DNA of 64,000 bases, taken from NCBI GenBank assembly GCA_027485835.1, contig JAIXQG010000002.1, positions 880,681-944,680 on the forward strand. Direction: 5' to 3'. Each line of letters starts with the position of its first letter. Within the stretch, counting starts at the first letter, position 1. The notes beneath the pieces are model-generated. The model made no database searches. It was not told the origin of the DNA and saw only the letters and a program-made list of their open reading frames with translations. Below, in pieces: positions 6,386 through 39,084 of the stretch. The position numbers and the translations under genes were made by a program. Origin of the DNA: Alphaproteobacteria bacterium. GTDB lineage: Bacteria; Pseudomonadota; Alphaproteobacteria; UBA2136; UBA6156.

Positions 6386-6402
6386 GTTTGTGGCTGATTG
6401 AA

Positions 6403-6579
6403 GGCGCGAGCTAAAACGGCGCCATAGCACTTTTTCGCGTGGCTTATGTACCTTCGTTTTTGTACACCGCGCCACGCGAAAAAGCACTCTGCCACCGTTT
6501 ATAGCCTCGCGCGCAGGGGCTTCCGTGCTTTGCACTGTTGGCGCTGGGAGAGCTATGCGCTGAGCGCATATCTCGCGCC
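6403..6579. repeat. MITE/REP-like intergenic repeat, copy A. Conserved ends ggcgcgRgctaaaa ... tttatagcNNcNcgNgNgggg, with internal hairpins.
   Basis: Shares terminal motifs with copies at 10889-11020 and 46199-46334. Internal perfect inverted repeat gcactttttcgcgtggc / gccacgcgaaaaagcac. Confidence 0.55.
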
Positions 6580-6681: not shown

Positions 6682-7710
6682 ATGAACGGCGGTAAGATTG
6701 AATTTGAGGGCGATGAGGCGGATATTGTGGCCACCAGCTTGCTGCGCCGCGACCTGCCCGTGGTGATTGCCGGTACCGCCAGCCAGAGTTTGGGTGAAGA
6801 AATTGCGTGGGGGCTTGGCGGCTACGTTCACCCCGTGACCGTGGAGCGCTTTGCCGATGGTGAGATTGGCGTGGAGCTGGGTGCCAGCGTGCGGCGGCGG
6901 AATGTGTTTATCGTGCAGAGCCTGTACCGCCCGCAGGAGCACCTGATGGAGCTGATGCTGCTGATTGATGCGTGCCGGCGTGCCAGTGCTGCGGAAATTA
7001 CGATTGTGGTACCGTACCTTGCCTATAGTAGGCAGGACCGTAAGGCGCGCTTGCGCAGCCCGATTTCGGCCAAGGTAGTGGCGCGGATGCTGGAGACCGC
7101 CGGTGCTGACCGGATTATGACCTTTGACTTGCACAGCGGGCAGGTACAGGGTTTTTACGAGATACCCTGCGATAACCTGCCCGGTGCGGAGATTTTGGCG
7201 CCGGTGGTCCAGCGGGCGTTGTTGGGGGATGATATCTGTTTAGTGGCGCCGGATGCCAGCGGTTTGGACCGCGTGCGGCATTTTATGAAGCGGCTGGATG
7301 CCGATGGTGATGAGCGGCCGGATGATTACCCTGTAGCGGTGGTGGACAAGCGCAAGGCCAAGCAGAACCTTGGCGCGGAAGCGGTGGTGGGGAATGTGGA
7401 CGGTTGCCACTGCGTGATTGTGGACGACATGATTGATACCGCGGGGAGCTTGCTGGCAGCTGTAAATGCGTTGCGGAGTGCGGGGGCGAGCAGCATCAGC
7501 ATGGTAGTGACTCATGGTTTGTTTAACGGCGATGCCTTGCGGGTGGTGGCCGGTGCGGGGCTGAAAAACCTGTGGCTGACCGACAGCGTGCCGGTGAGTG
7601 AGGACATTAAGAGCCTGCGCGGCGTGAAGGTGGTGAGTGTGGCGCCGCTGTTGGTGAAGGTGATTAAGCGGGTGAGTTTGGGGGATTCTCTCGAAGAAAT
7701 TTACAGTTAA
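6682..7710 (+). CDS. prs: Ribose-phosphate pyrophosphokinase
   Basis: RFADGEI, VRRRNVFIVQS and DDMIDTAGS motifs. Confidence 0.9.
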   Translation: MNGGKIEFEGDEADIVATSLLRRDLPVVIAGTASQSLGEEIAWGLGGYVHPVTVERFADGEIGVELGASVRRRNVFIVQSLYRPQEHLMELMLLIDACRRASAAEITIVVPYLAYSRQDRKARLRSPISAKVVARMLETAGADRIMTFDLHSGQVQGFYEIPCDNLPGAEILAPVVQRALLGDDICLVAPDASGLDRVRHFMKRLDADGDERPDDYPVAVVDKRKAKQNLGAEAVVGNVDGCHCVIVDDMIDTAGSLLAAVNALRSAGASSISMVVTHGLFNGDALRVVAGAGLKNLWLTDSVPVSEDIKSLRGVKVVSVAPLLVKVIKRVSLGDSLEEIYS

Positions 7711-7762: not shown

Positions 7763-8110
7763 ATGACCGAAGCATTTAATCATAAAGAACTTGAAGACTG
7801 GCGACAGGGCTTGGATATTCCGGCTTTGCGCAAAAGATTGGCCGAGGCGGCTGCGCCTGAAAAGGCTGCCAACCCGAATGCTCGGGCGACGTTGGCGGCT
7901 CTCTCGGCCGTTTACGGGCATATCGAGGCCGGTGAGTACACGAAGGCGCGAAGCTTTTTTTTGGGGCTGGAAGAGTTCTTGCGGGACACTACCGGCTGGG
8001 AGGAAGGACAGGGAAAGCCTTTGCCGAGCCCTCTGGACGAGGATGAACTTTCCAAGATGTTCTGGCAGGCTTCTAAGGCTTTGAGTAATCTCGCTTCGTC
8101 TGCAACTTAA
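7763..8110 (+). CDS. Hypothetical protein (115 aa)
   Basis: ORF with RBS aggag upstream. Confidence 0.45.
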   Translation: MTEAFNHKELEDWRQGLDIPALRKRLAEAAAPEKAANPNARATLAALSAVYGHIEAGEYTKARSFFLGLEEFLRDTTGWEEGQGKPLPSPLDEDELSKMFWQASKALSNLASSAT

Positions 8111-8259: not shown

Positions 8260-9156
8260 ATGACCACCATTACTCCGCAAATGATTAAGGACCTCCGCGA
8301 CCGCAGCGCCGCCGGTCTGGCTGATGTTAAAAAGGCTCTGGAAGCCACCGACGGCAATATTGAAGCTGCCATGGACTGGCTGCGCGAAAAGGGTATCTCC
8401 AAGGCTGCCAAGAAGAGTGGCCGCGCCGCTGCCGAAGGTATCGTGTGGGCCGTTTCCAACGGTAAAACCGGTGTGATGGTGGAAATCAACAGCGAGACCG
8501 ACTTCGCTGCCCGTAACGAGAGCTTCTCCGGCTTCGTGAAAAAGGTTGCCGATATCGCCCTGCAAAACGCCTGCGGCGATGCCGAAGCCATCAAGGCCCT
8601 GCCGTTTGAAGGTGGCAAGACCGTGGGTGAAGCCCTGACCGACCTGATTGCAACCGTAGGTGAAAACATGCAGCTGCGCCGCGCCGCCAAGCTGGAAAGT
8701 GCCGATGGTAACGTGGGTGCCTACATCCACATGGGTGGTAAGATTGGTGCGCTGGTTGCCGTATCCGGTGGCGATGTAGGTGAAGTGGCCCGTCAAGTTG
8801 CCATGCACGTCGCTGCCAGCAACCCTGCTGCCCTGGACCGCGACAGCATCGACCAAGACGTACTGGCCCGTGAAAAGGCGATTTTTGAAGCCCAAGCTGC
8901 CGAGAGCGGCAAGCCGGCCGCCGTTGTGGAAAAGATGGTGGAAGGCCGTGTGAGCAAGTTCTTGGAAGAGAGCTGCCTTGTTGAGCAAGCCTTTGTGATG
9001 GACCCCGACCGTAAGGTTGCCAAGGTTGTGGCTGATGCCAAGGCCGGTGCCAAGGTTTCTGGTTTTGTACGCTTTGGCTTGGGTGAAGGTGTTGAGAAGG
9101 AAGAATCCAACTTCGCTGAAGAGGTTATGCGTACTGCTGCTGGTAACGCTGCTTAA
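8260..9156 (+). CDS. tsf: Elongation factor Ts
   Basis: MTTITPQMIKDLRDRSAAGLADVKKALEATDGNIEAAMDWLREKG. No rpsB upstream. Confidence 0.95.
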   Translation: MTTITPQMIKDLRDRSAAGLADVKKALEATDGNIEAAMDWLREKGISKAAKKSGRAAAEGIVWAVSNGKTGVMVEINSETDFAARNESFSGFVKKVADIALQNACGDAEAIKALPFEGGKTVGEALTDLIATVGENMQLRRAAKLESADGNVGAYIHMGGKIGALVAVSGGDVGEVARQVAMHVAASNPAALDRDSIDQDVLAREKAIFEAQAAESGKPAAVVEKMVEGRVSKFLEESCLVEQAFVMDPDRKVAKVVADAKAGAKVSGFVRFGLGEGVEKEESNFAEEVMRTAAGNAA

Positions 9157-9173
9157 TTCGGCCTTTCTGAATG

Positions 9174-9200
9174 AAAACCCCTTCGGGGGTTTTTGTTTTA
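9174..9200 (+). terminator. Rho-independent terminator after tsf
   Basis: aaaaccccttcgggggttttt. Confidence 0.65.
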
Positions 9201-9231
9201 TGTGTAGGATGCTGCTGTTGTTAAGGAGATT

Positions 9232-9594
9232 TTGAAAATGAAGCTTGAGCCGAAGATGGCGGAGATTGCACCGGACCAGTTTTTTGCGGTGGATGTGCGG
9301 GTGGGGGTTGTGGTGGATGCCAAGCCGTTCCCGGAGGCGCGGAAGCCTGCGTACCAGATTTGGGTGGATTTTGGTGAGGCGTATGGGGTGAAGAAGACCT
9401 CGGCTCAGGTAGCCGTGCATTACACGCCCGAGGGCCTGATAGGGCGCAAGGTGCTGGGTTGGGTGAATGCACCTGCGCGGCAAATTGGCCCTTTTATGAG
9501 CGAGTTTTTGATTTTGGGTGTGCATGACGTTGACGGCGCGGTGTGTTTGCTTCAGGTAGACAGGGACGTACCAACAGGCGGGAGAATGAGTTAA
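9232..9594 (+). CDS. tRNA-binding domain protein (CsaA/EMAP-like)
   Basis: ~115 aa OB-fold-like sequence typical of CsaA/YgjH. Confidence 0.65.
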   Translation: MKMKLEPKMAEIAPDQFFAVDVRVGVVVDAKPFPEARKPAYQIWVDFGEAYGVKKTSAQVAVHYTPEGLIGRKVLGWVNAPARQIGPFMSEFLILGVHDVDGAVCLLQVDRDVPTGGRMS

Positions 9595-10169
9595 TGAGTT
9601 TTGCAGAATTAAAGAAGATGGCCGCGCCTCTGGACGATACGTTTGCAGTGTGGGGCTTTGGTGGCGGTTGGGCGATTGACGGAACCATCGGTAAGGTGAC
9701 GCGTGAGCACCATGATGTGGATATTTTCATTTTACGTGAGGATTTGGCTGAGTGGCGCGAGGTATGGCCGGAGGCGCTCTGGTATAAAATGGTTAATGAC
9801 CGAGAAGTAGAACTTGCTGACGGGGAAGAACCAGATGCGAGTGTACGCACGCTGCATGTCCGCGACGGTGAGGCGTTTTATGAAATTCTGCTGATGGAAA
9901 CCGAGGGCGATAACTGGGTGTACGAGCATGACGCCCGCGTGAAAATGCCGGTGGAAGAGGTGTTTGTGGCCGGTGTGGAGCGACTCTCGTTTGTGAACCC
10001 CGCGATTGCGTTGCTGATTAAGAGCAAACAGTTGCGTGAGAAGGACGTGAAAGATTTTAAGGCGGTGCTGCCGTTTTTGTCGGATTTTGAGCGCCAATGG
10101 CTGTTGCTGGCGTTACAGACCATGTATGGTGAGCACATTTGGATGGATGCATTAAAGGGAGCTAAGTAA
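9594..10169 (+). CDS. Nucleotidyltransferase of the ANT(2'')/Lnu (aminoglycoside/lincosamide nucleotidyltransferase) family
   Basis: WGFGGGWAIDGTIGKVTREHHDVDI matches the AadB-type motif WIGGGWAID..GRVTRKHDDIDL. TAATG overlaps on both sides (csaA upstream, pyrH downstream). Confidence 0.6.
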   Translation: MSFAELKKMAAPLDDTFAVWGFGGGWAIDGTIGKVTREHHDVDIFILREDLAEWREVWPEALWYKMVNDREVELADGEEPDASVRTLHVRDGEAFYEILLMETEGDNWVYEHDARVKMPVEEVFVAGVERLSFVNPAIALLIKSKQLREKDVKDFKAVLPFLSDFERQWLLLALQTMYGEHIWMDALKGAK

Positions 10170-10870
10170 TGGATTATAAGCGTATTGTTGTGAAGGTTTC
10201 GGGCGAGCGATTTGCCGGAGACCAGCACGAAAAGGTATTTGATGTCCACGCGATTGAAGACATTGCCGGTGAGATTAAAGCACTGGTGGACATGGGCATT
10301 CAGGTAGGCGTGGTAATTGGTGGCGGGAACATTGTGCGTGGTAAGGAAGCCGCCGCCGCCGGGATTATTGCCGCCCAAGCCCACCAGATGGGGATGCTGG
10401 CGATTGTGATTAACGCCCTTGCGCTGCAAAGCGTGCTGGAAGGCCAAGGCGTGCAAACCCGCGTGATGAGCGCGTTGACGATTGATACTGTGGCCGAGCC
10501 GTATATTCGTCGTCGTGCCATGCGCCATATGGAAAAGGGCCGCGTGGTGCTGTTTGCCGCGGGGATTGGGAACCCGTTCTTCAGCAGCGACACGGCTGGT
10601 GCGTTGCGCGCGATTGAGATCGGTGCCGAGATTTACGTCAAGGCCACCAAGGTGGACGGCATTTACACCGCCGACCCCGTGAAGGACCCGAATGCCAAGC
10701 ACTTGGCGGACATCAGCTACAAAGACGTGTTGGTGGACGACCTGAAGGTAATGGATGGCGCGGCGATTTCTCTCTGCCGCGAGAACCATATGCCGCTGAT
10801 GGTGTGCAAGGTGGGTGATGTGGTCAAAGCCCTTAAGGGTGAGGCGAAGTGCACCATTGTGCATGAGTAG
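10169..10870 (+). CDS. pyrH: UMP kinase
   Basis: IVVKVSGE ... GGGNIVRG ... FAAGIGNPFFSSDTAGALRAIEIGA. Confidence 0.95.
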   Translation: MDYKRIVVKVSGERFAGDQHEKVFDVHAIEDIAGEIKALVDMGIQVGVVIGGGNIVRGKEAAAAGIIAAQAHQMGMLAIVINALALQSVLEGQGVQTRVMSALTIDTVAEPYIRRRAMRHMEKGRVVLFAAGIGNPFFSSDTAGALRAIEIGAEIYVKATKVDGIYTADPVKDPNAKHLADISYKDVLVDDLKVMDGAAISLCRENHMPLMVCKVGDVVKALKGEAKCTIVHE

Positions 10871-10888
10871 GCTTAGGGGCTGATTAAC

Positions 10889-11020
10889 GGCGCGGGCTAA
10901 AACACTCCCCCAGCACTTCTTGGCGGGTCTGAAATACTCTCTTGTATTCGGCGCCCCGCCAATAAGCACTGGGATGAGCGTTTATAGCTCCGCGCGCGGG
11001 GGCAACGGCGCGTGGCGCCG
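10889..11020. repeat. MITE/REP-like intergenic repeat, copy B
   Basis: ggcgcgggctaaaacactcccccagcac ... tttatagctccgcgcgcggggg. Confidence 0.55.
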
Positions 11021-11077
11021 TGTTTTTTTAGGGCAGGTGGGTTGTGGCGTTGGGGTGTGAGGCGTAGAAGGTTGGGT

Positions 11078-12865
11078 ATGGTACGACATTCCTCCGATAA
11101 AAAAGCGAAAACGTCAGTGGACAAGGCGACGCAGAAGCGGACGCAGCGGTTTTTGTGGGAGTTGGTACGGCCTTATAAGTGGCGGCTGCTGGGCGGGAGC
11201 CTGATGCTGGTGGTGAGTGCGGGGGCGATGCTGGCGTTGCCGCAGTATTTGCGGCACATGTTTGATACCGCGCTGCGCACCGGTGATAAGGCGCAGTTGG
11301 GCGTGCTGGCGGGCATGATGTTTGGCACTGTTTTGGTGATGGTGGTCAGTATTTTTGCGCGGACGTGGTTGATTCAGTACAGTTCGACGTCGATTTTGGC
11401 CGAATTGCGGCGCCGCCTTGCGAATACGCTGTTGATGCAGGACGTGCGTTTTTTTGAGAACCGTTCTTCGGGGGAATTGGTCAGCCGGATGGCGTCGGAT
11501 ACGACGTCGGTGCGGGAGTTTTTGCACATGGCGGCGCCGCAGTTGGTGCGGGGGATTTTTCTAGGATTAGGGACCTTGTTGGCGTTGCTTTATACTAGCC
11601 CGAGTTTGACGCTGGTGCTGGTGGTGGCGTGTTTGCCGATTGCGTTGATCGGGCGGTTTTTGGGGACCTCGATCCGTTCTACCGTACGGCAGCAGCAGGA
11701 TAACATGGCTGGGTTTGGTGGGGCTTTGGAAGAGGCCGTGGCTAATATCCGAACCATTTTAGCCTTTAACCAGCAGCCGCGCCTGATGGCGGATATGGAA
11801 GAGCGCACGCAGGATATGCAGCGCGTGGGCAACCGCTTGGCGACGATACGCTCGGGGTTTGTGGCGGTGAACGTAGTGGTCGGTTTTTCGGCACTGATTG
11901 GCGTAGTGTGGCTGGGCGGTGTGCGGGTGATGGAAGGGGCGATGAGCCTTGGCGATATGATGGCATTTTTGCTGTATTTAGCGTTTGCGGCGGATGCGGC
12001 GGGGAATATCACCAATTTTTGGCCGGCGTGGCAGGGGGTTTTAGGATCGACCGAGCGGATTATCGGGATTTTGGACAGCAAGCCGGAGATTGCCGAGCCG
12101 AAGAAGGCTAAGGCTTTGCCGGTGGCGAAGGGTGGGCGTGGGATTGTTTTGAAGAACGTGCGGTATGTTTACCCCGCACGGCCTGATACCGCGGCGCTGG
12201 ATGGCTTGGAGATGGCGATTGCGGCGGGGCAGAACGTGGCGGTGGTGGGGCCGAGTGGCGCTGGGAAATCGACGTTGTTTAGATTGTTTTTACGTTTGGA
12301 TGATGTGACCGAGGGTAAGTTGCTGTTGGACGGCGTGGACGTGCGTGAGGCCGGTTTGGCGGATTTGCGCCGGCAGTTTGCGCTGGTGGCGCAGGAAAGC
12401 CCGCTCTTCAGCGGTACGGTGGCGTTTAATGTGCGCTTTGCCAAGCCGGATGCCACCGATGATGAAGTGTGGGCTGCCTTGAAGGCGGCCCATGCTGATG
12501 GGTTTGTGAAGGCCTTGCCGAAGGGTTTAAAGACGCCGGTGGGTGAGAAGGGCGTGCAGCTAAGTGGCGGGCAACGTCAGCGGATTGCGATTGCGCGGGC
12601 GGTGCTGGCCGATGCACCGGTGCTGTTGCTGGATGAGGCCACCGCGCACTTGGATAGCGAGAGCGAGGCGGCGATTCAGGCCGCGCTAACGACCGTGGGC
12701 AAGGGGCGGACGGTGGTGACGATTGCGCATAGATTATCCACTGTGAAAAATGCCGATGTGATTTTTGTGATGGATAAGGGACGTGTGGTGGCTTCGGGGA
12801 CGCATGGCGAGTTGATGAAGAGTAGTTCGCTTTATAAGGCGTTGGCGGCTATTCAGCTTGGTTAA
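11078..12865 (+). CDS. ABC transporter, fused permease/ATPase (MsbA-like exporter)
   Basis: Six-TM N-terminal domain. Walker A GPSGAGKST, signature LSGGQRQR, Walker B LLLDEAT. Confidence 0.85.
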   Translation: MVRHSSDKKAKTSVDKATQKRTQRFLWELVRPYKWRLLGGSLMLVVSAGAMLALPQYLRHMFDTALRTGDKAQLGVLAGMMFGTVLVMVVSIFARTWLIQYSSTSILAELRRRLANTLLMQDVRFFENRSSGELVSRMASDTTSVREFLHMAAPQLVRGIFLGLGTLLALLYTSPSLTLVLVVACLPIALIGRFLGTSIRSTVRQQQDNMAGFGGALEEAVANIRTILAFNQQPRLMADMEERTQDMQRVGNRLATIRSGFVAVNVVVGFSALIGVVWLGGVRVMEGAMSLGDMMAFLLYLAFAADAAGNITNFWPAWQGVLGSTERIIGILDSKPEIAEPKKAKALPVAKGGRGIVLKNVRYVYPARPDTAALDGLEMAIAAGQNVAVVGPSGAGKSTLFRLFLRLDDVTEGKLLLDGVDVREAGLADLRRQFALVAQESPLFSGTVAFNVRFAKPDATDDEVWAALKAAHADGFVKALPKGLKTPVGEKGVQLSGGQRQRIAIARAVLADAPVLLLDEATAHLDSESEAAIQAALTTVGKGRTVVTIAHRLSTVKNADVIFVMDKGRVVASGTHGELMKSSSLYKALAAIQLG

Positions 12866-31072: not shown

Positions 31073-32017
31073 ATGGCTGCAACGCCTGTTATGTTGGAAG
31101 AGGCGGCGCGCGAGTGGCGGGCTTATACGGAGTATCTGACCGTGATGAAGGGGGCGAGCCCGAACACGGTGGCGGCCTATGGCCGCGATATTAAGGATTT
31201 TTTAAGCTACGTGCAGACCGTGCCTGCGGAGGTAAGTGTTGCGGATGTGGAAGGTTGGATGGTAAGGCTTTCCAAAAACGAAAACGGTGCGCGTAGCGTG
31301 GCGCGGAAATTGAGTGCCGTGCGTGGCTTTTACCGGTTTTTGATGGAGCGCGGCTGGGCGAAAGATGACCCGACGGAGACGGTACCTTTACCGAAACTGC
31401 CGCAAACACTGCCGAAGGCGTTGAGTGTTGCCGATGTGAAAAAGCTGTTGCTGGCGCCGTTGGGTAGTACGCCCGCGGAAGTGCGGTTGCGGCTGATCAT
31501 TCAGCTTTTGTACGCGACCGGCTTGCGGGTGAGTGAGCTGTGTAACTTGACGCTGGATGCGGTGGCGGATGGCGATGGCGTTGTGCTGCGTGTGACGGGG
31601 AAGGGTGGCAAAACCCGCATGGTGCCGCTGGGTGATGTGGCGGCGCATACGTTGCGGGGCTATTTGAATGATGCGCGCCCGAAAATGCGCGGCAGCACCG
31701 GCCAGTGGGTATTTGCTAGCCCCGATGGGCACACGCCGCTGACGCGGGTGCGGGTGTTTCAGCTTTTAAAGGAGGCGGGGCAACGCGTGGGGGTGGAGGT
31801 GGCGCCGCACCACCTGCGCCACACCTTTGCGACCCACCTGCTGCAAAATGATGCGGATTTACGCGCGGTTCAGGTTATGTTAGGACATGCCAGCTTGAAC
31901 ACGACGCAGATATATACGAAAGTCGCCGGTGAGCGATTGAGAGAGACCTTGGAAAAACATCACCCCCTGAGTAATTCTAAGCTGGGCGCGGCCTCCAAAC
32001 GGAGTGGCACGCGCTAA
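31073..32017 (+). CDS. xerD: Tyrosine recombinase XerD
   Basis: HHLRHTFATHLL...LGHASLNTTQIYT. Confidence 0.9.
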   Translation: MAATPVMLEEAAREWRAYTEYLTVMKGASPNTVAAYGRDIKDFLSYVQTVPAEVSVADVEGWMVRLSKNENGARSVARKLSAVRGFYRFLMERGWAKDDPTETVPLPKLPQTLPKALSVADVKKLLLAPLGSTPAEVRLRLIIQLLYATGLRVSELCNLTLDAVADGDGVVLRVTGKGGKTRMVPLGDVAAHTLRGYLNDARPKMRGSTGQWVFASPDGHTPLTRVRVFQLLKEAGQRVGVEVAPHHLRHTFATHLLQNDADLRAVQVMLGHASLNTTQIYTKVAGERLRETLEKHHPLSNSKLGAASKRSGTR

Positions 32018-32970
32018 TGGCACGTCAATTTTTAGACTTTGAGAAGCCTATTCTGGAGCTGGCGGCTCGCATTGAGGATATGCGTGTAGCCCATGCCGAA
32101 GGTGCGATTACCGCTGAAAAGAACCTGCCCGCCGAGATTGAGCGGCTGGAAGTGCGTTTGGCGCGTGTGACCCGCTTGCTGTACCGCCATTTGACGCCGC
32201 ACCAGAAGGTGCAGGTGGCGCGGCACCCGCAGCGGCCGCAGGGCTCGGATTACATCAATACCCTCTTCACGGATTTTGTGGCGATGGAAGGTGACCGTCG
32301 GTTTGGCTCGGACAAGGCGCTGGTTGGCGGTTTTGCCCGTTTGAATGGCCTGCCGGTGATGGTGCTGGCGAATGATAAGGGCAAGGATACTCCCGGCCGT
32401 TTGGCGCGGAATTTTGGGATGCCCAAGCCGGAAGGTTACCGCAAGGCGCAGCGTTTGATGCTGCTAGCTGACCGTTTGGGGATTCCGGTGGTGAGTTTTG
32501 TGGATACGCCGGGGGCTTTCCCCGGAATTGACGCCGAGGAGCGGGGTCAGGCCGAGGCGATTGCGACCTGTTTGGAAGTGCAACTGGCGCTGAAAGTGCC
32601 GTTTGTGAGCGTGATTACGGGCGAAGGCGGCAGTGGCGGTGCGCTGGCGATGGCCGTGGCCGACAAGGTGCTGATGCTGGAAAATAGCGTTTATTCGGTG
32701 ATTTCTCCGGAAGGCTGTGCCGCGATTTTGTGGAAGGAAGCCACGAAGGATACGATTCCGTTGGCCGCCGAAGCGTTGAAGATGACCGCGCCCGACCTGT
32801 TGGGCCTTGGGATTATTGACGAAGTGATTAAAGAGCCGGTGGGTGGCGCGCATGCCGACCCTGAGTTGGCGATGCGGCGTGTGGGTGCGGCGGTGTTGGG
32901 GCACCTTGGGGCGCTGCGGGGTAAGGATTGCAAGGCCTTGCGGCGGGAACGGTTCTTGAAGATGACTTAA
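32017..32970 (+). CDS. accA: Acetyl-CoA carboxylase carboxyltransferase alpha subunit
   Basis: MARQFLDFEKPILEL ... typical AccA. Confidence 0.95.
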   Translation: MARQFLDFEKPILELAARIEDMRVAHAEGAITAEKNLPAEIERLEVRLARVTRLLYRHLTPHQKVQVARHPQRPQGSDYINTLFTDFVAMEGDRRFGSDKALVGGFARLNGLPVMVLANDKGKDTPGRLARNFGMPKPEGYRKAQRLMLLADRLGIPVVSFVDTPGAFPGIDAEERGQAEAIATCLEVQLALKVPFVSVITGEGGSGGALAMAVADKVLMLENSVYSVISPEGCAAILWKEATKDTIPLAAEALKMTAPDLLGLGIIDEVIKEPVGGAHADPELAMRRVGAAVLGHLGALRGKDCKALRRERFLKMT

Positions 32971-37677: not shown

Positions 37678-39084
37678 ATGGTAGAGCGTAAAGGGCCTGC
37701 AAAGGGCAAATTTGGTGGCGGTTTTTCGGGTCCGCGTGCAGGCGGGGCCGGTGGCGCCCGTGGTGGTTACAAGGCTGGTGGCAGCCGTGAAGGTGGGTTT
37801 GACCGTAAACCCCGCGAAGGTGGTTACGACCGCAAGCCGCGCGAAGGTGGTGAGCGTAGCTACGCACCGCGCGCCGATGGTGAGCGCAAGCCTTATGTAA
37901 AGCGTGAAGGCGGTTTTGACCGCAAGCCGCGTGAAGGTGGTTACGAGCGCAAAAGCTTTGGTGATGGTGAGCGTAAGCCTTACGTGAAGCGCGAAGGCAG
38001 CAGCTACGAGCGTAAACCCCGTGAAGGCGGCGAGCGTAGCTATGCGCCGCGTGGCGATGGTGAGCGTCGCCCTTATACCCCGCGTGAAGGCGGTTACGAC
38101 CGTAAACCGCGTGAGGGTGGTTACGAGCGCAAGAGCTTTGGCGATGGCGAGCGTAAGCCTTACGTGAAGCGTGAGGGCGGTTTTGACCGTAAGCCGCGTG
38201 AAGGTGGTTATGAGCGCAAGAGCTTTGGCGACGGCGAGCGCAAGCCGTATGTGAAGCGTGAGGGTGGGTTTGACCGTGCTCCGCGTGAAAACCGCGGTGA
38301 AGGCAAGCCGGCGAATTTTTCGGAAAAGCGGACCATCAAGCGCGACCGCAGCACCCCTGACGAAAAGCTGCTGATGGGTGGCGACGGCTGGTTGGTAGGT
38401 TACCATGCCGTGCTGGCCGCCCTGACCGCCGGCCGCCGCAAGGTGCGCAAGGTATGGCTGTTGAGCGAAGCCCAAGGCGAACTGGCGACCCTTTTGGAAA
38501 AGCACAGTGATTGGGATGTTGAGATTAAGTCTAAGCCCGAATTTGAGCGTGAGTTTGGCGATGTGGTTCACCAAGGTGTGGCCGCGCTGGTGGGTAACCT
38601 GCCGCAGCCGAGCCTGCCCGAGTTGCTGAGCAGCAAGCCGAAGCTGATTATCGCGCTGGACCAGATTACCGACCCGCACAACTTGGGTGCCATTGTACGC
38701 AGTGCGGCTGCCTTTGGCGCTGCTGGCGTGCTGGTGACCGAGCACCGCGCAGCTGGCCTGAACCTGACCGCTGCCAAGGTGGCTGCCGGTGCCATGGAAG
38801 TGGTACCCGTGGTGGAAGTGACCAACCTTGTGCAAAGCCTGACCATGATGCAGGAAGCCGGTTACACCGTGCTGGGTATGGCCGGTGAAGCCGAGACCGA
38901 GATTGGTGACGTGAACGCCAAGGGCCCCGTGTGCTTGGTGATGGGCAGTGAAGGCGAAGGCCTGCGCCGCCTGACCCGCGAAACCTGCGACACGCTGGTG
39001 AAGATTCAGATTTCTGCCGCCATGGAGAGTTTGAATGTATCTGTCGCTACTGGCGTCGCGTTGTCGATTCTGACCCGCAAGTAA
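37678..39084 (+). CDS. rlmB: 23S rRNA (guanosine-2'-O)-methyltransferase RlmB with a long N-terminal Arg/Gly/Glu-rich repeat extension
   Basis: C-terminal SpoU methylase domain (VGYHAV ... LDQITDPHNLGAIVRSA ... LVMGSEGEGL). The N-terminus has ~5 imperfect 29-aa repeats. Confidence 0.85.
   Translation: MVERKGPAKGKFGGGFSGPRAGGAGGARGGYKAGGSREGGFDRKPREGGYDRKPREGGERSYAPRADGERKPYVKREGGFDRKPREGGYERKSFGDGERKPYVKREGSSYERKPREGGERSYAPRGDGERRPYTPREGGYDRKPREGGYERKSFGDGERKPYVKREGGFDRKPREGGYERKSFGDGERKPYVKREGGFDRAPRENRGEGKPANFSEKRTIKRDRSTPDEKLLMGGDGWLVGYHAVLAALTAGRRKVRKVWLLSEAQGELATLLEKHSDWDVEIKSKPEFEREFGDVVHQGVAALVGNLPQPSLPELLSSKPKLIIALDQITDPHNLGAIVRSAAAFGAAGVLVTEHRAAGLNLTAAKVAAGAMEVVPVVEVTNLVQSLTMMQEAGYTVLGMAGEAETEIGDVNAKGPVCLVMGSEGEGLRRLTRETCDTLVKIQISAAMESLNVSVATGVALSILTRK
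37770..38290 (+). repeat. Tandem ~87-bp coding repeats (EGGYERKSFGDGERKPYVKREGGFDRKPR units)
   Basis: Visible periodicity in the protein and the DNA. Confidence 0.8.

Follow-up and report, generated by a model that had tools for sequence, protein, structure and literature searches.

A PF10706 nucleotidyltransferase gene in a variable slot between csaA and pyrH of an uncultured alphaproteobacterium, related to but placed by profile searches outside the ANT(2'') and Lnu resistance families

What is a nucleotidyltransferase with a signature known from antibiotic-modifying enzymes doing between a gene for a CsaA-like tRNA-binding protein and the gene for UMP kinase? The question arises from a stretch of 64,000 nucleotides of an uncultured alphaproteobacterium (part of contig JAIXQG010000002.1; we call this stretch as a whole the window), where a 191-aa protein, here X, carries at residues 23-43 the segment GGGWAIDGTIGKVTREHHDVD (GGGWAID...TR.H.D.D). 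A previous, sequence-only reading had pointed out this motif as well as the position of X between csaA and pyrH with TAATG overlaps on both sides. It was correct on both counts: upon re-reading the sequence, residues 23-43 align to residues 27-46 of ANT(2'')-Ia, and profiles and coordinates confirm the gene order (Table 1). What that reading made of it - an intrinsic antibiotic-modifying enzyme or an enzyme co-regulated with translation factors - is another matter. To our minds, and with a probability of roughly 0.55, X is an accessory, two-domain and Mg-dependent NMP-transferase of the ANT(2'')/Lnu(A) superfamily that acts on a small molecule and whose location is incidental.

Table 1. Genes and predicted structural elements at the csaA-X-pyrH locus (window positions)
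Feature	Position	Strand	Basis or remark
tsf (elongation factor Ts)	8260..9156	+	TIGR00116 321.7 bits; PF00889
intrinsic-terminator-like hairpin with U-run after tsf	9173..9199	+	fold of 9150-9245
csaA / tRNA-binding protein	9238..9594	+	NF007495, TIGR02222, PF01588
X, PF10706 nucleotidyltransferase, 191 aa	9594..10169	+	
pyrH (UMP kinase)	10169..10870	+	TIGR02075 280 bits; start overlaps X stop
palindromic REP/MITE-like intergenic element, 3' of pyrH	10886..11000	.	long hairpin
terminator-like hairpin with T-run closing csaA-X-pyrH	11005..11031	+	consensus scan

Both junctions of X share a single base, with the csaA stop TAA (9592-9594) running into the X ATG (9594-9596) and the X stop TAA (10167-10169) into the pyrH ATG (10169-10171), and a GGAG-type Shine-Dalgarno sequence is found 8-9 nt 5' of each start at the locus. 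The csaA product has 118 aa if read from the ATG at 9238 (the open reading frame itself opens with a TTG at 9232) and passes its profiles (NF007495: 161.2 bits, cut-off 117; TIGR02222: 130.7 bits, cut-off 119.65), while the next-longest start for X, an upstream GTG at 9543, is used by no orthologue. As for the neighbouring tsf, it is 96% identical to that of L001 and L002 and 86% to that of L004. The REP/MITE-like hairpin behind pyrH (dG -76 kcal/mol, z -6.4) has related copies at window positions ~6395-6515 and, in L168 and L001, also after tsf; an ABC exporter is encoded downstream of the locus. An Rfam scan of the whole window yielded nothing that reaches a gathering score, and no leader or riboswitch was found. 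Composition was considered as a sign of recent horizontal transfer of X and yields no clear signal: GC (0.517) and GC3 (0.594) are the lowest among the neighbour genes, but X still shares the G3 bias of the strand.

X is a real gene under purifying selection. Its 11 orthologues (69-88% identity), all of which come from uncultured alphaproteobacterial assemblies, give dN/dS ratios of 0.11 against the nearest relatives and of 0.09-0.25 across all pairs, which is about double what tsf, pyrH and prs show and still indicates clear purifying selection.

A single tsf-csaA-X-pyrH operon, as assumed in the sequence-only reading, is not borne out. Located 17 nt past the tsf stop, the sequence GAAAACCCC-UUCG-GGGGUUUUU is predicted to form a textbook intrinsic terminator with a 9-bp GC-cored stem and a U-run (dG -27.2, z -3.0 for the folded region), which is absent from a simple consensus terminator scan and was found by folding. 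An equivalent hairpin is kept in the relatives L168 and L001. Moreover, in L001 and L170 tsf and csaA are parted by a gene on the opposite strand so that, at least there, the tsf transcript cannot cover csaA-X-pyrH. Terminator and opposite-strand genes together therefore leave csaA-X-pyrH as the tight unit, which a second terminator-like hairpin (7-bp stem, 6 GC pairs, tail GTTTTTTT) closes. A promoter for csaA was found neither on the + strand by consensus scan nor, convincingly, in the 40 nt that lead from the first terminator to csaA, and an alignment of csaA upstream regions shows the Shine-Dalgarno sequence and the terminator as the only conserved elements. Read-through of the terminator from tsf into csaA is possible in the genome of the window.

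Does it matter, then, where X is located? Linkage of tsf to pyrH is conserved as had been claimed, since 43 of 45 metagenome loci with tsf upstream have gaps of 22-236 nt between the two genes; csaA or X occurs in none. These 45 control loci stem from a metagenome scan, have pyrH genes that are 51-58% identical and include no relatives from the lineage of the window. Judged by such short gaps, the 1,012-nt content seen here is an insertion. Within the lineage, csaA follows tsf in every relative examined, with or without X, and the backbone reads tsf-csaA-[slot]-pyrH, with a slot that is occupied by X in some genomes and by a DUF6314 gene or a small ORF in others. Three sister lineages located through csaA bear this out: in L172 (csaA 78% identical) the csaA stop is overlapped by a DUF6314 gene, after which comes pyrH, L173 (71%) has a 75-aa ORF and then pyrH, and L174 (69%) has no pyrH after csaA. 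The gap between tsf and csaA, too, carries unrelated insertions (L001, L170, L173). When the tsf-pyrH intergenic content is compared among relatives, the order tsf-csaA is kept but what comes after csaA differs.

The tight junctions of X do not alter this picture. At position 32017 of the window, a tyrosine recombinase gene and accA meet in a TAATG overlap as well, which shows that functionally unrelated genes overlap in this manner in the window; insertion into a variable slot can give a gene close start/stop overlaps with essential neighbours, and junctions of this kind should not be taken as a sign of functional coupling. The 6-kb surroundings of distant homologues at 79 loci (from named genomes) contain none of csaA, tsf and pyrH. 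With the terminator behind tsf, the variable slot, these 79 loci and the recombinase-accA junction all pointing the same way, the proposal that X is co-regulated with translation factors because it works with them is unsupported. Rather, X seems to have come to lie next to translation genes through an insertion specific to the lineage.

Which family does X belong to? It matches Pfam PF10706 (Aminoglyc_resit) at 34.4 bits (cut-off 21), with residues 6-125 covering profile positions 2-121 of 149, and the same domain is annotated in all X orthologues and in the members of a wider subfamily (see below). Models dedicated to resistance, on the other hand, all failed. The NCBIfam model of ANT(2'')-Ia (NF000064) gives X 26.5 bits against a cut-off of 350 and over residues 10-52 only, and those of Lnu(A), (AN2), (C), (D), (E) and (P) all remain below their cut-offs of 300-350, the best being Lnu(C) with 22.6 bits against 300 and the remaining ones reaching 13-22 bits; NCBIfam resistance scores of X thus are more than 10-fold under the cut-offs. 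Nevertheless, homology to both enzymes exceeds the generic fold. A profile of the subfamily finds ANT(2'')-Ia with an E-value of 3.6e-8, though over residues 6-46 only, and Lnu(A) with 1e-7 over residues 8-160, which takes in both domains. In hhalign, X and ANT(2'')-Ia (the sequence used is identical to 4WQK) align with 97% probability across residues 6-65 only, and as similarity stops at about residue 65, acceptor-binding residues are not comparable. So the previous ANT(2'')/Lnu-like call holds for the superfamily, with PF10706 passed and homology found, but not for the two antibiotic-resistance families, ANT(2'') and Lnu, outside of which these profile scores place X.

These findings bear on whether X provides intrinsic resistance by adenylylating aminoglycosides or lincosamides and so protects the ribosome, which would make sense of its translation-gene neighbours. 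We consider this improbable, even though the only characterised relatives of X are ANT(2'')-Ia and Lnu(A), its strongly acidic surface is what one would expect for binding of polycationic aminoglycosides and the ABC exporter downstream may be added in its favour. Scores of 13-27 bits with NCBIfam models whose cut-offs are 300-350, identities of 13-16% to the solved enzymes and a C-terminal acceptor domain that cannot be aligned to ANT(2'')-Ia all speak against it, the latter in particular because specificity is set by the C-terminal domains (PMC4313920). In addition, sister lineages do without X at the same locus, and members of the family are annotated only as hypothetical proteins.

An AF2 model of X built from a 61-sequence input (pLDDT 94, pTM 0.89) shows a nucleotidyltransferase fold followed by beta-hairpins and a 4-helix bundle, a layout as described for ANT(2'')-Ia. 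Searched against the PDB with Foldseek, the model retrieves, in rank order, ANT(2'')-Ia (TM 0.58-0.62), the tRNA-nucleotidyltransferase toxin MenT1 (0.51-0.54), Lnu(A) (0.56-0.66) and TM1012 (0.50-0.62), all at 13-16% identity. In the hhalign alignment, R37, H39, D41 and D43 of X fall on R40, H42, D44 and D46 of ANT(2'')-Ia, which mutagenesis and crystallography have identified as NTP contacts and Mg ligands (PMC4313920). D41, D/E43 and E97 are invariant among 61 subfamily members and so are R37 and H39. Less straightforward is the catalytic base, which is Asp86 in ANT(2'')-Ia, where Tyr74 and Tyr134 stack on the aminoglycoside (PMC4313920). By strand order, the strand with H85-E86 in the subfamily is the counterpart of that with the base in ANT(2'')-Ia (D86) and Lnu(A) (D90), so by this criterion - rather than by sequence alignment - D86 corresponds to positions 85-86, which are H-E in the subfamily and R-T in X. 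If E86, not E97, matches D86, X may lack the catalytic base. However, position 86 is Glu in only ~60% of a more diverse representative set while E97 is invariant, and it is for this reason that we take E97 as the likely third carboxylate. With a net charge of -15 and a pI of 4.7 (subfamily median 6.0), X would suit a cationic ligand, and its charge argues against direct RNA binding.

Replacement of H85-E86 extends to a second pair, R111-R112. Outside the X clade, H85, E86, R111 and R112 are conserved in 48-50 of 50 subfamily members (alignment A2), but the window's X has R85/T86 and E111/H112. Both pairs are replaced in 6/11 clade members including the window, with others keeping all or part of them, and the replacements are assorted: RT, TT, ET or GT at 85-86 and EH, ED, EG, DG or GA at 111-112. 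This suggests that constraint has been released at precisely those sites, with the remainder of the protein still constrained. Relaxed selection upon loss of the two pairs was considered as well, yet the gap in dN/dS between losers (0.13-0.15) and keepers (0.09) is too small to call. One may thus envisage that X in the sub-lineage of the window has lost ancestral catalysis or acceptor binding and is kept for a different purpose, for instance to bind nucleotides, to serve a new acceptor or to act as a structural partner. Near-invariance of the four residues outside the clade and their varied replacement within it, in proteins otherwise as constrained as the dN/dS values between motif-losing members show, are what this scenario can claim. 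It nonetheless seems unlikely to us, given that D41, D43, E97, R37, H39, K143, R148, D151 and D154 - the DxD pair among them - are intact in all X orthologues, and that position 86, with its Glu, varies anyway once more diverse subfamily members are considered. Furthermore, Lnu(A) is active with Q-N in place of R-R, and R-R therefore is dispensable for catalysis in the superfamily.

How widespread is this type of protein? Using HMMER against 1.84 billion cluster representatives, we found at least 1,270 clusters (formed at 50% identity) with E<=1e-3, 493 of which have E<=1e-10, and most consist of full-length proteins of ~190 aa that are 30-42% identical to X. They share the motifs W-x-[FY]-x-x-D-x-R, P-x-x-x-L-L-x-K-x-K-x-x-R-x-K-D-x-x-D-F and W-L...H-x-W, are common in Bacillales and Acidobacteriota and are found on 85 plasmids, among them megaplasmids of Priestia and Bacillus and the pAt plasmid of Agrobacterium. 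The 1,158 proteins from a profile search have generic names ('nucleotidyltransferase domain-containing protein', 'hypothetical protein' or names copied from Pfam), a characterised member with known substrate was not found in the databases searched, and the literature on PF10706 or Aminoglyc_resit that we found comes down to incidental mentions. Neither is there a recurrent partner, as the 142 genes directly flanking 71 distant homologues represent 125 Pfam families, the commonest of which include GNAT (11/142), the glyoxalase/bleomycin-resistance fold (5) and NUDIX (5). One plasmid copy lies behind MarR among GST, SDR and hydrolase genes, another follows MerR, with genes for an MFS efflux pump and a GNAT protein nearby; these two contexts fit a xenobiotic-handling role.

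There are weak hints, nevertheless, that the location of X may carry meaning. The 1-nt overlap between csaA and X is kept in 7/7 orthologue loci, where the junction between X and pyrH varies (an overlap of 1 or 11 nt, or a gap of 4 nt). L173 has a second subfamily member, a 34% identical paralogue encoded in the tsf-csaA gap on the opposite strand, which is somewhat unexpected if location were a pure accident. And P0011, the closest outgroup of the X clade (41% identity), sits between two RNA methyltransferase genes. Kept overlap and P0011 context can both be read to mean that X acts on RNA together with CsaA by adding nucleotides to the 3' ends of tRNA or repairing them, much as MenT toxins or CCA-adding enzymes do. 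Also along this line, the subfamily motif W-x-[FY]-R-R-D resembles motif B (RRD) of the CCA-adding enzymes of class II. MenT1, whose activity as a tRNA nucleotidyltransferase toxin has been described (PMC10435456), is among the top fold matches of X. Its match with the subfamily profile, however, has an E-value of 0.12 and is confined to the N-terminal motif (48 residues), and X has no DUF1814/AbiEii match (PF08843, E<=1) and no PADLOC match. As well as this, X is strongly negatively charged and in the window is devoid of the R-R pair, csaA is present at the same locus without X, and none of the 79 distant homologue loci is near csaA. No RNA or translation family is among the most frequent neighbours (25 of the 125 families inspected, for 142 neighbours), and stand-alone homologues are without a conserved antitoxin-like partner. 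All this makes an RNA-directed role very improbable, and a more specific version, in which X, as a diverged ANT(2'')/Lnu-type enzyme whose fold is close to that of MenT1, has become a partner of CsaA, CsaA presents tRNA or the 3' end of another RNA for nucleotidylation and loss of H-E and R-R marks a change of acceptor, is slightly less probable still. A toxin reading of X was likewise disfavoured in view of the missing DUF1814 and PADLOC matches, the lack of a conserved partner gene and the strongly acidic protein; libraries of defence and phage genes gave no match for X, csaA, the L173 paralogue or P0011.

We thus return to X as an accessory NMP-transferase, for which we infer the chemistry and the small-molecule nature of the acceptor as follows. 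D41, D43 and a third carboxylate, probably that of E97, would coordinate two Mg2+ ions, and the NTP would be positioned with contacts from R37, H39 and, from the helical C-terminal domain, probably K143 and R148. A small molecule bound in the interdomain cleft would then serve as acceptor and receive the NMP directly on one of its hydroxyls. In the variant encoded by the window, the ancestral acceptor may have shifted or been lost. Expression of X with csaA and pyrH would follow from the site of insertion and not from shared work. If this is true, little changes in that X is one more uncharacterised PF10706 nucleotidyltransferase. Resistome pipelines, though, should not label it as ANT(2'') or Lnu, and a single biochemical characterisation would provide annotation for thousands of subfamily genes in soil bacteria and on megaplasmids. 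Were the partnership with CsaA true instead, the ANT(2'')/Lnu family would be a source of housekeeping RNA-modifying enzymes.

Among known systems, ANT(2'')-Ia (AadB; 4WQK/4WQL, 5CFS) is the best fold match of X, belongs to the same Pfam family and has a similar size. The two have in common the N-terminal helix, the G-G-G-W-A-I-D...T-R-x-H-x-D-x-D segment and the two-domain layout. Yet they are only ~14% identical, sequence similarity is limited to residues 6-65, and Tyr74/Tyr134 and Asp86 have no confident counterpart in X. Also, ANT(2'')-Ia is found on integrons whereas X is chromosomal and comes from an uncultured alphaproteobacterium. Lnu(A)/LinA (4FO1, 4WH5) shares with X, in the profile alignment, the C-terminal P-x-x-x-L-L...D-x-x-D stretch but differs in having Q-N at the R-R positions of the subfamily and in lacking the last helix.

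MenT1/AbiEii (DUF1814) toxins are of the same size class as X and have a comparable fold score, and, as in their toxin-antitoxin operons, the start of X is overlapped by the upstream gene. Unlike X, for which a significant sequence match to them is missing and which is acidic rather than RNA-binding in character, the toxins come with a cognate antitoxin gene, while the csaA neighbour of X is of housekeeping type and present without X in sister lineages. The DUF1814 family has four motifs, of which motif IV is unique to it (PMC10435456). Finally, compared with the ~190-aa PF10706 subfamily to which it belongs, X is without H85-E86 and R111-R112 and is more acidic, and its clade is the only one of the subfamily that we found beside csaA and pyrH.

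Our comparison of loci from relatives and sister lineages shows that, in the alphaproteobacterial lineage that carries X (the 191-aa PF10706 nucleotidyltransferase encoded between csaA and pyrH), the interval from tsf to pyrH is a hotspot at which unrelated accessory genes have inserted. Among the insertions is a DUF6314 gene that overlaps the csaA stop codon, and several of the inserted ORFs neither matched Pfam nor resembled one another. In the sister lineage L173, the slot that X fills between csaA and pyrH holds only a 75-aa ORF, and a PF10706 gene with 34% identity to X lies instead in the tsf-csaA gap, in reverse orientation. The PF10706 subfamily recurs at the tsf-csaA-pyrH locus, in L173 at a position and in an orientation other than those of X.

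Coordinates of features at the tsf-pyrH locus, elsewhere in the window and in related loci
Feature	Locus	Position	Remark
prs	window	6682-7710	precedes tsf
115-aa ORF	window	7763-8110	between prs and tsf
MsbA-like ABC exporter gene	window	11081-12865	after pyrH
Palindromic element, copy 1	window	10886-11000	after pyrH
Palindromic element, copy 2	window	~6395-6515	upstream of prs
Palindromic element	L168	3342-3540	after tsf
Palindromic element	L001	2998-3105	after tsf
Accessory insertion	L172	5351-5746	tsf...pyrH interval
Accessory insertion	L001	3199-3840	tsf...pyrH interval
Accessory insertion	L170	1608-2159	tsf...pyrH interval
Accessory insertion	L173	2590-4939	tsf...pyrH interval
Second PF10706 member	L173	1833-2561	minus strand
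P0011 with both methyltransferase genes	L164	582-2924	
XerC/D-like recombinase and accA	window	31073-32970	TAATG overlap
SpoU-type methyltransferase	window	37678-39084	long N-terminal extension

An intergenic, REP/MITE-like palindromic element of ~110-130 nt is present in the window and in the relatives L168 and L001. Folding gave a single long hairpin (dG -76 kcal/mol, z -6.4), and the end motif GCGCGNGCTAAAAC occurs three times as opposed to 0.28 expected.

Some subfamily members (P0198, P0266 and the plasmid matches H6, H20 and H25) bear the NCBI/UniRef name 'amino acid transporter', which looks like a propagated misannotation since these are soluble NTase-fold proteins of ~190 aa. In two fusion proteins of ~365 aa (P0160, P0161), the subfamily domain is joined to PF14907, a separate nucleotidyltransferase family. 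The nearest outgroup to the X clade, P0011 (41% identity), lies on the same strand as its two neighbours, which encode a SAM methyltransferase resembling RlmI/RsmD and a SpoU-type RNA 2'-O-methyltransferase. The window also encodes a SpoU-type enzyme, whose N-terminal extension consists of coding repeats (27/87/90/180 nt) rich in R-E-G-G-[YF]-D-R-K-P.

A stop/start overlap of the TAATG type seen in csaA/X/pyrH also links a XerC/D-like tyrosine recombinase gene to accA. Across the entire window (1-64000), GC skew is extreme, even and positive (+0.14 to +0.29 in all 4-kb bins), far above typical bacterial replication skew, despite identified coding genes on both strands; plus-strand genes are strongly enriched in G at third-codon positions.

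The prs-tsf gap measures 547 nt in the window versus ~240 nt in the relatives L001, L002 and L004. The 115-aa ORF within it matched no Pfam family and lacked a counterpart in these three loci; it may be a small gene specific to the lineage, or it may not code for a protein. L001 shares the prs-tsf and pyrH-ABC exporter arrangement of the window; L004 has another gene downstream. Compared with the usual order rpsB-tsf-pyrH-frr, the cluster in the window is disrupted, with prs before tsf and the MsbA-like exporter gene after pyrH.
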